A stretch of 64,000 nucleotides of DNA from Longimicrobiales bacterium. GTDB taxonomy: Bacteria > Gemmatimonadota > Gemmatimonadetes > Longimicrobiales > Gaopeijiaceae. This document shows, piece by piece, positions 30,001 through 36,000 of this stretch. The position numbers were made by a program. Location of the stretch: contig CBDFIQ010000001.1 in the NCBI GenBank assembly GCA_965248195.1, positions 160,001-224,000 on the forward strand, read 5' to 3'. The first letter of the stretch is position 1, and every line of letters begins with the position of its first letter.

Positions 30001-33000
30001 TAGCGCCCCGAGGAAGACGTCGCACGGATCTGGGTCCCGACCAGGCTCATGGGGTAGGTTCTCTTCCCCCCCGCCGGAGCTCTGGCTCGTCCCCGCGCAC
30101 GAGCCGTGTGTCGAGCTCGAGGCGAGGCACGTCGGCGACTCCCAGCCACGAGCGCGGGTCCTCGTCCCGGCGACGTTCGACGAGCTCGCGGCAGCGAGCC
30201 GCGTGGGCGAGCACGGCGTCGACGTCGACACCCAGGTAGTATGGCCGGTACCCGGCCAGCTTCCGCTCTGCCTTCTCGAGCTGCGCGCCGACGCCGCGTG
30301 CGTTGCCCCTCTGGGCGTGTACGAACGCGCTGGCGTAGAGGATCAAGCCCTGGTAGAAGTCGCTCCCCTCCTCGCGCCATGGGCCCTCGAGCACCTCGTG
30401 GCTCTCCCAGTACTCCCGCGCATTGAAGAGCTCGAGAAAGCGGTGCAGCGCCTGAGGAAGGTCCTGGCGGTCAGGGCCGCCGCCCTTCGTTTCAGGGTCT
30501 GGCGGTGTCGGGCCTCGTCGACGACGCATAGCAACACATCTCGACCAGCGGATTGGTCAGCAGCGTGGGAGGTCTAGGGAACCACGAACCGTCTGCTGCT
30601 TCCCCCAGTGGCGTTGTCCTGGGTGGCTGGATCGGGACCGCGGCCTTCGGCGAATGCCCTCTCCACCGCCCGCGTGTTCACGAGCAGACCGGTCATCCCA
30701 TAATTACCCTCATGACAGCCTCCCTCATACACTTGATTCGCCTCATCACTGTTCTTCGTCAGCTCTTGCAGGATGGTCCAGGGTCGCGTCCACGTCCTGG
30801 GATCTTCAATCGTAATTTCGACCGAGAGCGTAGTATCATCGACACGCCGATAGCGTTCGATGAGATGCAAGTTCTCCCGGGAGCCTCGAAAGCTAGTCTT
30901 CTCGGTGAAATTAGTGATCTCGACGACCAGCGTATTACCCTCCCATCGGCCACGCGCGTCGCCGTGGCGCAGCCGAATGTGCTCTGGCAATGACGGACGA
31001 TCCGTGATAGGAATGCTCCGGCTGAATCCCTGTCCCTGGCCGACGTCATAGTAGATCCCGACGATCCCAGGAGACTGCACGACCCGCATCACCCCGCCGA
31101 ACGTTCCGGACTGGAGCACGAGTGGCAGGCTGTTTCCGAAACAGCGCTCCGCACTGCTGCGGTCTTCCGGGCCGTCGGAGCGGTTCAAGCGATCCAAGTT
31201 GTAGTCGGGAGAAGGCTCCGCTCTCCTCGGTGACACAGGTCCCGGCCTCCCCCCCGAGGTGCCTTGCAGAAGGGCGCCCAGATACTCTCGTTTGGTGGCT
31301 CTCCTCTGCTCGGCCTCTTGCGCCAAAGGCGGAATTCTCCCGTCCGGAGGATCGATCACCTGCGATGTCCGCTTGCCCCGAACCAAGGATGGGTCGCCGA
31401 ACCAGTGCTCGTTGTAAGCCTGGGCGACGTCCGCTTCACTCCCCGCCTGGTCGCGGGCGTCACGACCGAGACCCTGAGATATGTCGAAGAGTGCTCGTTC
31501 GGCTGCCGCGATTTCCTCTTCGGTCAGAAACTCCCTCGTGCCATACTCTTCGGCGCGCTCCAGGGGCGTCACGGCCGCATTGTTCCAGATCCCCTGGAGG
31601 TCCGGCTCACCCCACGGCGTGCGGAGCGAGGACGCCAGTTGGGCCTGCTGAGACGCCACCGACACGAGCCCTAACAACACGAACATGATCACGACAGCCA
31701 GCGCGCTCGCTAACGCAAACTCCTGATCCCTCATCGTCATCGGGGGGCACCGGTACCGGACGAACCGACGAACAATGTGCGTCCATCAGGCAGCGTGATA
31801 TCCCTCCCGTTTGCTCTCCGCGACCCGTCCTTGGCCTGATAACCATCAATGACGATTTCTGTTCCTGGTGGCAGTGACTGCCTCGTGATGCCTCGTCTAA
31901 ACAGCACGTTCGGCGTCCCTGCTTCGATGGCCCACTCCTCGACTGTGCCGTTCGGCTGCTGCACTTCCACGTGGATCCAAGCGTGAGGATTGACCCACTG
32001 CACGCGAAAGACGGTCGCCTTCTCGAACCTCACGGGCTTGTCGGCATCAAATTCCGCGGAAAATGCATGATGCGCCGGCGCGGGCGCCGTGGTGAGAGCC
32101 AGCAGCGCGACGAGACCGGCACCCACACGGGTTGCACGGATCAGCTTTACTCGCATCGGATCGCCTCCTATGGTTGCCTAGGCGGGTTTCCGGACCAGTG
32201 ACGTTCGTACAACACTTGCTCATCCTGTGGGATCTTGCGCGTGATGTCGACGATCATAGTCTGGCCCTCCCACCGGTTGACCAACTGTTCCTTGCGAAGA
32301 TGGCCATACAGCGTCTCTTCAACCATCTCGGTGCAACGGAACTCCAGCAGTCGAGCATTCTCCTCCAGACGACGGTAGAGCGGCATGGTGATTGTCCACG
32401 GCCGGGTGAACACCTTGGGATCCTCGATGGTGGCTTCGTAGCTGATGGCGTCGGGACTGATGAGGGTGTATCGCTCGACGACATGCAAGGCATCGCTGTG
32501 GAAATTGCCGGCCCGGTCGAGCCACGTGTTCGCCGTGAACGTCGATACGTCGACGACCAAGGTCTCCCCCTCCCATCGGCCGACCGAGTGTCCCATGAAC
32601 GCTTCGCCGGGATACCCCTCGACTTCATCCAAGTGAATGAAACGTTGGGCACCTCCAAACTCGAAGAGCATCATGAGCCGGTTAGTGCTCTGAATGATTT
32701 GAAACGGATAGGGGAGATACATGGCCCGAGGCACACCTGGCATAAAACACTTCAGCTCCGGGTCGCGGTCCAGCCAGTGCTCGGCGTTTTCTCTCTGTCT
32801 CGCTGCAGCCCATGGCTGGTAAGGAATCTCATCACCCTCCACCACCCCGAGCCCCGGAGGGACCCAGCCCGCCGAACCCAGAGCCACCACGGGTGCTGCG
32901 AGCACCGGGTAATCACTGTACACTCCCGGTTGCGCCACCATTGGACGCGCTAGATGAGTTTGCAGGTCCCAGTTCGCCGTGTTGTTCGCCTGCCAAATGC

Positions 33001-36000
33001 CACTGAAGTCGGGCTTCCCGTCCGCCGTACGTGGAATCTGAGAGGCCGGAGCCTGCCCTGAAGTCGGCCCACAGGCCACCCAGATCAGGGGCATGAGGGC
33101 GATCGTCGCAATCGCTATCAGCGAGTTTCTCAACAGGTGCTGCATGCGATAGAGCCCCCTCTCAAACCGTCAAATACCCGGCCCGCAGGCGCCTGAAACA
33201 GTCGACTACACCCAGTTCCTCTCGTCGCACTGTATAGCTCCGACCACCTCGAAGTCAACAATGGGACACGGTGGCGGGGTCGAAATCGCGGGCCGCGGAT
33301 CTGGTCCGATGGCTACACGTAGCGGCCACCTCACATTCGCGAGGCGGAGCAGCCGACCTCCGCGTACATTGAGAACCTCCGGAAGGCGACGCGAGCATTG
33401 CGAACGCCGCGAACGACCGCCCGATTTGAGAGTCGTCGGGGCCCCTAAATTCGACGCGACCATGGACACAGATCAGCGCCTGGACGCCCTGGTAGCGCCC
33501 CTCCGCGCAGATGTCGTGTCTGGCGCATCGGTGGTCGGAAGGATGGCCGCGGAAGTGCTTTGCCGAGCTGCGATGCATGCACAGGCGGGCTCGCTCGAGG
33601 AGTACCGTTCGGAGTTGGGCGAGGTATCCGGGAAGATGCTCGACGCCCAACCTGCGATGGCACCGCTGGTCACGCTCGTGCGAGACGTGCTCGCCTCCGT
33701 GGAGGCCTCCGCAGATCTCGAGACCGGTCGCCAGGCCGCAGTCCGAGCCGCCGAAGCGTTCGGGAGCGGTCTCGAGCTGCGGGCTGAGTCCGTCGCCACA
33801 CGCGCCGCCGCGTTGATTCCATCGGGAGGTACCGTGGCCACGATCTCGTCTTCTTCGACGGTGCGAGCGACGCTGACCCATGAGCGGGCGCGGGCCGTCG
33901 GGCGGGTGATATGCTTCGAGAGCCGACCGATGCGGGAGGGAGAGATCTTCGCCACCGCCCTGGCGAAGGCGGGGGTGGCGGTGACGTTTGCTGTCGACGC
34001 CGCCGCCTCGACGCTCATGGGCGAGTGCGACACCGTGCTGCTGGGTGCGGACTCGATCGGTGACTTGGGAGTCGTGAACAAGATCGGCTCCGCCGGATTG
34101 GTCGACGCTGCGATGAGACGTGAGGTGCCGGTCATGGTGGTATCCGATGAAACGAAGATCCTGCCGACCGGATTCCCTCAGCACCTCGCCGACGACCGTC
34201 CCCCTGAGGAAGTCTGGAGGGCACCAGCCGGTGTGCGCGTGTGGAATCGGTACTTCGAACCGTTCGAGCTCGAACGGGTGACGGTGGTGGTGACCGAGTC
34301 AGCCGCACTCACCCCACTGGAAGTCGAAGAACTGCGCAAAGGCCTCGTGCTGCCAGCCGGCCTCCTGATGTGGGCCGACGCCCGTGCGCGTCGGACACCA
34401 TGACCTCGGCCCCCTTCGACGAACATCGCGACGTCGTGCGTCCCGAGTGGATCGACGACAACGGCCATCTAAACATGGGCTACTACGTGGTGGCCTTCGA
34501 CCGGGCCACCGACACTTGGCTCGACTACATCGGCCTGTCCGCCAGCGAAAAGGCGCGGTCGGGTGCCACCACCTTCACACTCGAATCACACGTGAACTAC
34601 CTGCGGGAGGTGCGAGAGGCGGCCCCGCTGCGATTCACGACGAGGCTGCTAGCGTTCGACCAGAAGCGGATCCACTACTTCCACGAGATGCACCACGCGA
34701 CGGACGGGTTCCTGGCCGCCACCAACGAGCTCATGTCTCTTCACGTGAACCTGGCTACGCGACGCGCGGCGCCCATGACGGCAGACGTGCTCGCTCGGCT
34801 AGCAGACGTCTTGAGCCTGCACGGGACACTACCGGTTCCTCCACAGGTCGGGCGCCGAATCGGACTCGACTCCGGGTCTTGAGGTCTCATCGCCTGAGTG
34901 CCCATTCGTACTGACGCCCCAACAAACTGCATTTGCCACCCAGCGGCTACGTCTCCAGTATTCCGGAACGGTGACCGCCGGGAGGTGGCCGCTCAAGAAT
35001 CCTGATCACAGTCTTGCTGAGGGACTCGGGATGGAAATCACCCACCGGAGGGCCGGAGTGACTCGTGACGTAAGAAGCGCGTTGGCCTGCATCCTCGCCG
35101 CCATGGCGCTTCCCGTGGCTGGCTCGGCCCAACAGGCCTCGTTTACCGCGGCGCAGGCCGAGGCGGGAGCCGCCGTCTACCAGACCGCGTGCGCGGTGTG
35201 TCACTTGGCGAACCTGCAGGGGTCTGGGGAGGCGCCACAGCTTGCGGGGACCGACTTTCGCACTTTTCGAGGAAACCGGCCCGCCGTGGCGCTGATGACC
35301 TACGTTCGTGCTACCATGCCCCCCGGTCAGGAGGGGTCGCTCACCGAGGAAGAGTACGCTGCGGTCACGGCGTATATCATGCGTGAGAATGGTGTCGCTC
35401 AGGGCTCGGCTCCGCTCAGCCTCGCCTCCCGGGGATCTCTCGTCCTCGGTGGGGGGGCCGTGGCCGCGCTTGGGCCGGGCGGAATCATCCCGCCTGTTCC
35501 GGGACGACCGGGAACCGGACCCTCACCGGGGGGAGTGAACTCGCTGCCGGACTTCGGTTCCCTCTCGGAGACCCGAACGGGAGCCACCCGAACGTATGAG
35601 CGGATCGAGGACTTCGTACCGGTTTCGGACGCGGAGCTCCGCGACCCGGAGCCCGGTGATTGGCTCAACGCGCGGGGAAACCTCGAGTCGTGGGGATACA
35701 GCCCGCTCAATCAGATCAACACCGAGAACGTAGATCGGCTCGAGCTCGCGTGGGTCTGGGGGATGGAGGACGGGACCCGTAGCCAGCCAGCGCCCCTCGT
35801 ACACGACGGAGTGATGTTCCTGCCGAACTGGGGCAACACGATCCAAGCGCTGGACGCTACGACAGGCACCCTCCTGTGGGAGTACCGCAGGTCCTTCCCA
35901 GAGGGGATGTCGGGCGGTCGTGGCCGGGCGCGAACGATCGCGATCTCGGAGGACATGATCCTCGTGTCGACGAACGACGCGTACATGCTGGCCCTGGATG

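Follow-up and report, generated by a model that had tools for sequence, protein, structure and literature searches.

DUF6152 and two exported barrel proteins of a Longimicrobiales bacterium: a conserved three-gene set that may form a periplasmic metal module

In the Longimicrobiales genome studied here, a small exported DUF6152 protein is encoded between two members of an unnamed family of exported barrel proteins, A325 and B388. Conservation, gene linkage and phyletic co-occurrence mark the three genes as a unit, and we propose that their products form one Sec-exported periplasmic module, in which DUF6152 would carry a metal site at its N-terminal histidine and dock on the B-type barrel. We give this reading a probability of about 0.45; that a metal is present, which metal it would be and whether the module acts in catalysis or relay are points that we infer. 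The survey's finding, which paired DUF6152 with a family of secreted neighbours, had overlooked both the three-part make-up of the unit (an A-type barrel, a B-type barrel and DUF6152) and the modelled position of DUF6152 on the B-type barrel. As far as the literature was searched, DUF6152 is not mentioned in it.

The window is the whole stretch of DNA that was analysed, 64,000 nucleotides in length. Three open reading frames were found on its minus strand within positions 30574-33145, and these frames, together with the match of the middle one to PF19649 (E 3.8e-31; 107.5 bits, where 27 is the cut-off), confirm the three genes where the survey had placed them (Table 1). The overlap between the DUF6152 stop codon and the B388 start codon suggests that translation of these two genes is coupled, and two studies have RNA-library contigs that run across both gene junctions. 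The promoter-like pattern matched upstream of A325 was found at 2 sites, versus a mean of 0.7 in shuffled sequences.

Table 1. Features of the three-gene set, in window positions
Feature	Positions	Strand	Basis
A325 (325 aa, signal peptide), A-type protein of the unnamed family of exported barrels	32168..33145	-	ORF
DUF6152 protein, 139 aa; predicted mature part residues 29-139, OB fold	31737..32156	-	PF19649 match, model
B388 (388 aa, signal peptide), divergent B-type of that family	30574..31740	-	ORF
DUF6152 codons 1-28, predicted Sec-type signal peptide ending in A-P-A	32073..32156	-	Sequence, family comparison
His29-His30 codons (cat cat), predicted mature N-terminus of DUF6152	32067..32072	-	Sequence
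DUF6152 Asn56-Pro57-His58 codons	31983..31991	-	Conservation; centre of predicted B388 interface
Codons of B388 residues 338-346, YEGGCHEGN (family consensus YEYACHEGN)	30703..30729	-	Main DUF6152 contact in model
GGAGG, Shine-Dalgarno-like, 8 bases 5' of the DUF6152 start, overlapping the A325 stop codon	32164..32168	-	Sequence
ATGA, B388 start codon overlapping the DUF6152 stop codon	31737..31740	-	Sequence
Promoter-like site upstream of A325	33229..33258	-	Pattern match only, 9/12 consensus

The association of DUF6152 with its neighbours is firmer than first claimed. A barrel-family member lies in the flank of DUF6152 at 78 of 80 related loci, and at 63 of them an A-type and a B-type are both present within 2.7 kb (A-type only at 10, B-type only at 2, neither at 5). 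An A-type thus accompanies DUF6152 more often than a B-type does (73/80 loci versus 65/80), and more than 20 different gene orders occur among these loci. Each of seven related genomes has one contiguous A-B-DUF6152 set. Within the genome itself the pairing reported by the survey stands, but its count of three DUF6152 genes in five becomes four, because a divergent family member abutting the divergent DUF6152 copy (HHSSAPFYD) had been missed. Across the phylum, DUF6152 is found in 9 of 121 sampled genomes, and in none of 14 control genomes; the same 8 of the 121 hold both DUF6152 above the cut-off and the barrel family, while one has a weak DUF6152 match only and one has the barrel family only. 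Genera g2 and g3 include genomes with both families and genomes with neither.

A325 and B388 are distant paralogues, sharing 31% identity across 156 residues (E 2e-20). The family has 20 members in this genome rather than the 19 counted before, the addition being the divergent one at G000:C2:2769810-2770631 (E 1e-8). When this member is counted, C133 and C271 keep the invariance that the survey had assigned to four residues, whereas E268 and E273 are conserved only at 90% or above. Sixteen members are B-types, 11 of them away from any DUF6152. B388 is 30-43% identical to most B-types and 70% to the closest; it lacks several typical B-type residues (Y214, E232, H235 and Y340), and E339, C342, E344 and N346 are invariant across 53 B-types. 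The A- and B-type proteins have in common an invariant Cys pair, an N-terminal RTPDGxPDLxGxW motif and a conserved C-terminal motif, and their first strand contains a near-invariant G-x-W, which we take to be a calycin signature. At least 8000 homologues were scored in a search with A325, and none of the best 120 listed (67-100% identical) has a Pfam domain. No Pfam or NCBIfam family was found for A325 or B388 at E <= 0.1, nor for the divergent member, and a profile search returned no PDB relative (best E 1); by these searches neither protein belongs to a named lipocalin or FABP family.

The genome carries five DUF6152 genes, and even the divergent copy scores 89.1 bits against PF19649. His-His stands at the predicted junction in all five, the alignment giving the five cleavage junctions as they had been written in the survey. 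Among 126 diverse representatives of DUF6152, 108 have His-His directly after the signal peptide, at an AxA-type cleavage site; the commonest signal peptide length across the family is 23 residues, position -1 is almost always Ala or Gly, and position -3 is small or aliphatic. The best reading of these sequences is that predicted cleavage leaves His-His at the mature N-terminus. Eight residues previously described as invariant (H29, H30, D37, N56, P57, H58, W75 and E78) are so in an alignment of 18 sequences, and in a wider set of 67, H29, H30 and P57 remain invariant with the other five at 90% or above. In that wider set the Asn56, Pro57 and His58 positions are kept in 99%, 100% and 99% of sequences, the most conserved His columns are H29 (100%), H30 (100%) and H58 (99%), and there is no conserved Met or Cys column (best Met 34%, start codon aside; best Cys 6%). 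In all nine merged long forms with a family segment, the DUF6152 part is preceded by a signal peptide of its own or by a frameshift. The His-His of P0326, a two-domain DUF6152 protein, is internal and so has no free amino group, which counts against a site of that kind.

The model of DUF6152, built from 67 sequences, has a mean pLDDT of 89.9 and upholds the OB fold proposed earlier: its best matches are SSB and PriB OB folds, at a generic level (Z 8.6-8.0, rmsd 2.2-3.0 over 81-84 residues), and the top 50 comprise SSB, PriB, tRNA-synthetase anticodon-binding domains and the like. These matches begin at residues 37-39; of the conserved His residues, some sit on an extension at the N-terminus that is not part of the canonical OB core, the rest in one loop.

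The predicted DUF6152-B388 complex passes its controls. Modelled with A325, B388 and DUF6152, it scores 0.66 (0.62, 0.77 and 0.66 in three runs) versus 0.01 for the best control, with a partner pLDDT of at least 75 and at least 57% of contacts common to the runs; 116 of 157 solved complexes attain the score mark, as do 2 of 215 mismatched pairs, a calibration that is only a rough guide here, as the run had three chains and alignments of our own. With B388 replaced the score is lost: A325 and DUF6152 then give 0.01, although the A-type is the steadier neighbour in gene order. As there is no solved relative by sequence, the result is unlikely to reflect memory of a known complex. In the model, the conserved face of DUF6152, with His-His and N-P-H, rests on the invariant Cys/Glu motif of B388. 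The predicted interface takes in 10 of the 18 DUF6152 positions conserved at 90% or above, versus 8/81 elsewhere (Fisher P 0.005). The B388 side of the interface contains the invariant C200, E339, C342, E344 and N346, and conserved positions are not enriched there (5/38 vs 36/320, P 0.45).

Our hypothesis is that A325, DUF6152 and B388 would be inherited and lost as a unit, and that signal-peptide cleavage would expose His29-His30 of the small OB barrel. The free amino terminus, His29-His30 and His58 of the N-P-H loop could then form a transition-metal site of the N-terminal-His type. The conserved face of DUF6152 is predicted to dock on the B-type barrel at its invariant disulfide pair and C-terminal YEYACHEGN motif, so that the metal site might be shared by the two proteins and face a small molecule held in the barrel, while the A-type would be a third, obligatory component. 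A metal site on the N-terminal histidine of DUF6152 is plausible; such a site using the free amino group needs His-His to stand exactly at the cleavage site (PMC10952591).

A second proposal dispenses with metal altogether. The barrels may instead carry a small molecule, probably a hydrophobic one, or process it, with DUF6152 as a lid or adaptor whose His residues serve ligand contact, acid-base chemistry or the interface; the ligand might pass to DUF6644, a small membrane protein. A calycin/FABP-like barrel would suit such a role, and the A325 model (pLDDT 67.7) does resemble one, at Foldseek E values of 1.2e-3 or above and VIA Z 8.9-8.0 (rmsd 3.2-3.6 over 106-121 residues), a Z that is common for unmatched models. 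Its core, residues 37-260, aligns to FABP/CRABP, lipocalin and nitrobindin barrels at Z 8.9-7.1, again typical of models that have no true match. The A/B proteins are roughly double the size of members of that calycin superfamily, with the invariant Cys pair and N- and C-terminal motifs of their own; a comparison with a DUF3471 barrel gave an hhalign probability of 0.15. The family is also heavily duplicated and has a range of periplasmic hydrolases as neighbours (beta-lactamase-like, amidase, tannase, phosphotriesterase, S9 peptidase), which fits a ligand, an interface role alone could explain the conservation of DUF6152 residues predicted to contact another protein, and the internal His-His of P0326 would have no amino terminus to offer. 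However, the fold match is generic and the ligand hypothetical, side-chain roles alone leave the placing of His-His at the cleavage site unexplained, and the merged long forms consistently keep a signal peptide or frameshift ahead of the DUF6152 part. We regard this metal-free alternative as rather unlikely.

That DUF6152 chaperones or traffics copper in the periplasm like CopC, YcnI or CusF, passing it to its neighbours or to a membrane importer, we judge improbable. Such a role would account for the predicted N-terminal His, and PMC10952591 links the histidine-brace relatives CopC, YcnI and PmoF1 mainly with copper transport. In its favour, too, a pair of small DUF6644 membrane proteins adjoins the gene set in 19/80 loci and in all seven related genomes (confirmed by Pfam in three, and deduced in four from similar N-terminal sequences). 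One of 14 DUF6644 proteins has a sub-threshold CopD match (E 4.3e-4, 21.1 bits vs a cut-off of 32.1), but 23 of them compared with E. coli YebZ, of the CopD family, gave an hhalign probability of 0.10, a weak test with a single-sequence template; sub-threshold DUF2214 matches occur in 5/14. A CopC-CopD or YcnI-YcnJ module was considered and set aside, since the recurrent membrane neighbour is DUF6644 and none of the 14 scanned reached the CopD cut-off. Neither the annotated neighbour clusters (2-16, 18-21) of the 80 loci include a copper ATPase, multicopper oxidase, CopC or CusABC, nor do the neighbours in the genome itself, and five DUF6152 genes with 20 partner genes in one genome fit metal homeostasis poorly. 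CusF and SilF are small periplasmic five-stranded OB-type barrels, a form that DUF6152 may share, and are named in PMC10656224 as the only OB-fold proteins with metal-ion binding as their sole function. CusF uses methionines and a capping tryptophan, at a site that also has a His, and does not bind Cu(II) (PMC10656224), whereas DUF6152 has no conserved Met and so lacks a CusF/SilF-type Cu(I) site, contrary to the CusF-like site of the survey; the top 50 fold matches include neither CusF nor SilF. We find no support for copper, for a CusF-like protein or for a CopC/CopD-like one.

A haem or other organic cofactor held between conserved histidines of DUF6152 and of the B-type (H235, H343), as in a periplasmic electron-transfer or sensor unit, is very improbable: nitrobindin-type haem barrels occur among the A325 fold matches (Z 7.6 and 7.1), cytochrome c turns up repeatedly in the vicinity as a gene or a domain (multihaem cytochromes in 7/80 loci), and propeller-cytochrome c fusions like PQQ (pyrroloquinoline quinone) dehydrogenases adjoin the set in 4/7 related genomes, with one such protein of PQQ type in the window 1.8 kb away, but no haem-binding motif is present, B388 lacks H235, the nitrobindin matches are no better than other calycin matches, and 45 to more than 70 PQQ-type genes in these genomes make the neighbourhood a weak signal.

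Known histidine-brace families have beta-sandwich-type folds. From its sequence, DUF6152 is predicted to have His as mature residue 1, as a brace does, but its model is an OB fold and neither an LPMO nor a CopC fold, so the likeness to a histidine brace drawn in the survey fails by fold; no sequence relation between DUF6152 and histidine-brace proteins was detected either. What it would have in common with LPMO, CopC, YcnI, PmoF1 and X325/Bim1, as PMC10952591 describes them, is an N-terminal His unmasked by cleavage and a second conserved His. In the same account, the brace holds Cu in a T-shape: His1 supplies its NH2 and pi-N, the second His its tau-N. DUF6152 differs from these proteins in its OB barrel, in a second His directly beside the first and in having no copper genes among its annotated neighbours.

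A parallel to our proposed module may lie in proteins found by 'signal strapping': DUF4198 (which binds Ni), DUF6702 and two anglerases, Ang-1 and Ang-2. All are bacterial proteins that are secreted or stay in the periplasm and were formerly DUFs or unnamed, with His as mature residue 1, as is predicted for DUF6152 (main text of PMC12537917, in which PF19649/DUF6152 was not found). According to that text, other exported N-terminal-His proteins bind Ni, Cu and other metals whatever their fold. DUF6152 departs from them in its OB fold, its His-His pair, its predicted metal site and its two obligatory barrel partners. DUF6152 and these partners are a widespread set of exported bacterial proteins that has gone unstudied, and the gene set looks like a new metal-dependent envelope machine, with a function that we infer.

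We propose that the DUF6152 protein and the A-type and B-type barrel proteins form one functional module, with DUF6152 touching the B-type protein via a conserved face, a reading to which we assign a probability of about 0.8. In the window the three genes A325 (A-type), DUF6152 and B388 (B-type) are tightly packed on the minus strand. A GGAGG lies 8 bases 5′ of where DUF6152 starts and shares bases with the A325 stop codon; at the other end of the gene, an ATGA combines the DUF6152 stop with the B388 start. A pattern search found no intergenic terminator-like site on the minus strand within the set, and one promoter-like site, a pattern match only, upstream of A325. 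Metatranscriptome contigs from four runs in two studies are 90–99% like this stretch, with only 2 differences each in records 5 and 29; some cross the A325/DUF6152 junction and others the DUF6152/B388 junction. They are a weak hint that the members of the set, or the genes of close relatives, are expressed together; a single transcript is not provable from such contigs, and RNA libraries can contain DNA.

The predicted contact between DUF6152 and B388 comes from a model of three mature chains (A325, B388 and DUF6152, each with its own alignment), with DUF6152 as the scored partner. The complex scored 0.66 (0.62, 0.77 and 0.66 in separate runs) against 0.01 for the best control, with a partner pLDDT of at least 75 and at least 57% of contacts common to the runs. 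Of 157 solved complexes 116 attain this mark, as do 2 of 215 mismatched pairs, a calibration that holds only roughly for three chains with their own alignments. As there is no solved homologue, the pass is unlikely to be owed to a known complex that the network had memorised. DUF6152 and B388 account for nearly all of the confident contacts, and when B388 was swapped for an unrelated protein, with A325 still present, the score fell to 0.01. This last value gives a direct A325–DUF6152 contact no support and is not evidence against binding.

On the DUF6152 side, the interface comprises residues 29–31, 33–35, 53–58, 60, 78, 81–92 and 108–114, and it takes in 10 of the 18 positions conserved in at least 90% of sequences, against 8 of 81 positions elsewhere (Fisher P 0.005). 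On the B388 side it comprises C200, 232–237 and 336–348, including the invariant C200, E339, C342, E344 and N346; conserved positions as a whole are not enriched there (5/38 versus 36/320, P 0.45). Because typical B-types have His at the position of B388 Q235 (46 of 53) and at H343, the modelled interface would draw together as many as five histidines, plus several glutamates, contributed by the two proteins. Among 69 adjacent pairs of DUF6152 and the nearest B-type, 4 of the top 50 covarying position pairs fall in the predicted interface, where 1.5 are expected; this counts neither for nor against the contact.

The second line of evidence is linkage across genomes. In 80 loci of the closest DUF6152 relatives from species-representative genomes, a sample biased to the subfamily of the window (57–72% identity) and drawn mostly from Acidobacteriota (Vicinamibacterales, Bryobacterales) with few Gemmatimonadota and Pseudomonadota, the family HMM finds a barrel family member in the flank of 78. 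Strong matches within 2.7 kb comprise both A and B in 63 loci, A only in 10, B only in 2 and neither in 5. Gene order is shuffled: writing D for DUF6152 and lower case for the opposite strand, we count ABD 13 times, ADB 10, AD 8, ADb 8 and BAD 7, with about 20 other orders. Such variety points to selection for retaining these genes side by side more than to simple inheritance of a single operon. We also sampled the phylum evenly, taking 121 genomes that are at least 90% complete: DUF6152 occurs in 9, 8 of them above the cut-off, and the barrel family in 9, with both in the same 8 genomes. The discordant cases are one genome with a weak DUF6152 match only (E 4.7e-4) and one fragmented assembly with a family member only; related genomes are not independent, and no P value is attached to this co-occurrence. 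Two genera each contain genomes with both families and genomes with neither, and all seven related genomes carry one contiguous A–B–DUF6152 set.

The 139-residue protein clearly belongs to Pfam DUF6152 (E 3.8e-31; score 107.5 bits, cut-off 27), while a Pfam and NCBIfam search at E ≤ 0.1 places A325 and B388 in no family. These two are distant paralogues (31% identity over 156 residues, E 2e-20). The survey's finding had described a family of 19 members in this genome (two contigs, 4.86 Mb in total, the window being C1:160001–224000); the family stands, and its count is 20, made up of four A-types (A325, two paralogues 49–50% identical to it and one divergent member) and 16 B-types, whose consensus motifs are EMIHD and YEYACHEGN. 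Each of the 20 has a signal peptide and a near-invariant N-terminal RTPDGxPDLxGxW, and C133, C271, R168, E224, R225 and D242 (A325 numbering) are invariant in the 20. B388 is an atypical B-type, without Y214, E232, H235 and Y340. Every A-type gene either immediately precedes a DUF6152 gene or is at most one gene removed from it. The adjacency first reported for three of the five DUF6152 genes of the genome thus extends to four, and the fifth adjoins a DUF3179 gene. Eleven of the 16 B-types lie away from DUF6152, beside assorted exported hydrolases. All 8,000 scored candidate relatives of A325 are homologues, and no Pfam domain appears among the 120 A325 matches listed.

Several observations concern individual copies. 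At its C-terminus A325 has an extension in which the core strand motif RWEGxT(L/M)xVD recurs; this extension is kept in close homologues, is missing from the two other A-types of the genome, and may serve in strand swapping or in dimerisation. An A–B–B–DUF6152 copy elsewhere on the same contig has a phage-type integrase and ORFs resembling transposases for neighbours, and its third-position GC is below that of the DNA around it; horizontal acquisition as an island is probable. In the window, a DUF309 gene begins 45 bp past B388 and is followed by a cupin gene; both lack a signal peptide, and neither turned up in the recurrent clusters that we annotated around the set in the 80 loci.

The AlphaFold2 model of DUF6152 has a mean pLDDT of 89.9 (67-sequence alignment); Foldseek against the PDB gives weak matches only (best E 2.8e-3), and a comparison with 48,161 chains returns SSB/PriB-type OB folds (Z 8.6–8.0, rmsd 2.2–3.0 over 81–84 residues), with CusF absent among the 50 best fold matches. 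These OB matches begin at residues 37–39, so that HHAFSAEFD precedes the canonical OB core as an extension at the N-terminus. The A325 model (58 sequences; pLDDT 67.7, pTM 0.66) has a confident beta core at about residues 145–260, and the matches of the model are FABP, CRABP, SAHS and nitrobindin barrels (Z 8.9–7.1; Foldseek E at least 1.2e-3). Since Z values of 7 to 8 are typical of models without a true match in this search, we agree with the survey's verdict of a generic fold, for DUF6152 and A325 alike. A PDB sequence search with both profiles gave nothing below E 0.47. The barrel was also considered as a DUF3471 homologue, a lead from the nearest named Atlas cluster (score 0.81) and from fold matches to the C-terminal domains of beta-lactamase-family enzymes; it was rejected at an hhalign probability of 0.15.

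His-His stands at the predicted mature amino terminus of DUF6152. The five cleavage junctions first proposed by eye read as described, with His-His right behind Ala or Gly at −1 in all five. A full scan of 1.84 billion representative proteins (E ≤ 0.001) yields at least 9,414 clusters of relatives at 50% identity; in an alignment of the best 150 of the 9,414, the His29 column is occupied in 126, of which 108 have His-His. In these 126 representatives the stretch N-terminal to His-His is most commonly 23 residues long, and the −3/−1 pairs are AxA (41), LxA (22), VxA (19) and similar, a pattern from which cleavage is predicted right before His-His. Most of the 18 remaining sequences resemble truncated or frame-shifted gene calls, and the few real-looking exceptions keep a single His (D-H, H-P, H-R). 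The signal peptides, as read from the sequences, have no twin-arginine motif, which fits Sec export and periplasmic folding. Across a curated set of 67 full-length sequences (mean column identity 27%), H29, H30, P57 and G125 are invariant, N56, H58, W75, E78, E35 and D37 are conserved in at least 90%, and no Met or Cys column is conserved. Two homologues, P0265 and P0326, each have two DUF6152 domains in tandem; the second domain retains an internal His-His-Ser in P0326 and has none in P0265. True fusions of DUF6152 with the barrel can be set aside for this subfamily: of 18 long proteins found, 9 have both domains, in all nine the DUF6152 part has its own signal peptide or lies behind a frameshift, and nearly all are single-member clusters, as though they were merged gene calls.

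The 80 loci contain 805 called genes, which we grouped into clusters; for the clusters that recur, representatives were annotated. Two small DUF6644 membrane proteins in tandem are found in 19 loci, mostly directly adjacent. In 13 loci the gene immediately downstream of DUF6152 encodes a multi-pass membrane protein of about 540 residues that faintly resembles RnfD/NqrB (E 2e-4, below cut-off). TonB-dependent-type outer-membrane barrels occur in 8 loci, multihaem cytochromes in 7, and DUF5916/CBM9-type proteins of about 740 residues in 7 and beside one B paralogue of the present genome. The DUF6644 pair accompanies the set in all seven related genomes (by Pfam in three; in four from similar N-terminal sequences). 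Neither DUF6644 nor the 540-residue protein is near the set in the window; the genome has two DUF6644 pairs, one of them 2 kb from another copy of the set. In one related lineage a protein of 532–668 residues without a Pfam family stands between the DUF6644 pair and DUF6152, and on comparison its 532-residue form is unrelated to the RnfD-like neighbour. A CopD-like nature of DUF6644 found no support (hhalign probability of 0.10 against YebZ; one sub-threshold Pfam match only).

PQQ-type dehydrogenases are recurrent neighbours too (27 of 80 loci, within 6 kb), and a cytochrome c-fused PQQ-like propeller lies beside the A-type gene in four of the seven related genomes; the cytochrome c-fused enzyme of the window is only 27% identical to these four propellers. 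We treat this link as not specific. Such a gene lies within 6 kb of 5 of 15 loci in the present genome, and the signal is probably background because there are about 45 PQQ-type genes in this genome and 70 or more in three of five relatives' chromosomes (Vicinamibacterales), and permutation gives P 0.025–0.14, depending on distance. The PQQ genes have themselves expanded greatly, and in those very genomes where the DUF6152 module is expanded. One PQQ dehydrogenase gene on the second contig is split into two ORFs by a single in-frame TGA; the gene may be broken, the base may be misread, or the codon may be recoded.

Coordinates of the features discussed (G000, the genome; C1 and C2, its contigs; L-numbers, fetched loci)
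Feature	Position	Strand	Remark
A325	window 32168-33145	-	ORF, 325 aa
DUF6152 protein	window 31737-32156	-	ORF, 139 aa
B388	window 30574-31740	-	ORF, 388 aa
A325 C-terminal extension	window 32168-32293		residues 285-325
DUF309 gene	window 30047-30529	-	no signal peptide
Cupin gene	window 29664-30380	-	no signal peptide
PQQ-type dehydrogenase	window 34971-37244		cytochrome c-fused
Record 11, run X16	window 31811-32523		RNA-library contig
Record 20, run X18	window 31162-31951		RNA-library contig
A-B-B-DUF6152 copy	L001:2092-10378 (G000:C1:1337091-1345377)		probable island
PQQ dehydrogenase gene with in-frame TGA	G000:C2:2820993-2822746 (L002:1-1658)		two ORFs
Membrane protein, ~540 aa	L062:6389-8044; L047:6437-8155; L037:6430-8013		10 further loci
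DUF5916/CBM9-type protein	L006:4236-6455; L094:855-3077; L073:529-3060
Protein of 532-668 aa	L099:4189-5787; L100:4476-6113; L101:4495-6501		no Pfam family

The most economical reason for His-His at the cleavage site would be that the amino terminus, once unmasked, takes part in a transition-metal site, a reading to which we give an even chance. Why signal-peptide cleavage is needed for histidine-brace sites is explained in a review (PMC10952591), and, according to the signal-strapping study (PMC12537917), exported N-terminal-His proteins of unrelated folds bind metals, Ni and Cu among them. Copper, the metal favoured in the survey's finding, seems to us an unlikely choice, because nothing else in the loci points to it and there is no Met-based Cu(I) site. 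A bound metal might act catalytically on a molecule in the barrel, be passed on to the DUF6644 membrane proteins, or simply be sequestered.

A bolder and decidedly improbable reading is that the gene set encodes a new kind of multi-subunit periplasmic metallo-oxidase or peroxygenase. A detachable OB-fold subunit with a histidine-brace-like metal centre on its first residue would cap the mouth of a calycin barrel holding a small organic substrate, which would amount to LPMO-type chemistry on soluble molecules. The many barrel paralogues would then each bring a substrate pocket of their own to a small number of common His-His caps, and this would explain the 16 B-types to five DUF6152 genes and the expansion in soil and sediment bacteria.

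Our literature search found no paper that mentions DUF6152, PF19649, DUF6644, PF20349, the barrel family or such a module; the main text of PMC12537917 is without PF19649, though its supplements could list further families. Three things are new here: that the set has three parts, that these are jointly gained and lost from genome to genome, and that a DUF6152–B interface is predicted on the invariant motifs of both proteins. With this concrete interface and the candidate site residues (H29, H30 and H58 of DUF6152; C200, E339, C342, H343, E344 and N346 of the B-type), the function could be pursued by standard biochemical means. Should the metal site prove real, metal-binding OB folds would, going by the count in PMC10656224, gain a new kind next to CusF/SilF, and DUF6152 would represent a new class of N-terminal-histidine metalloproteins that is abundant in soil Acidobacteriota and their neighbours.
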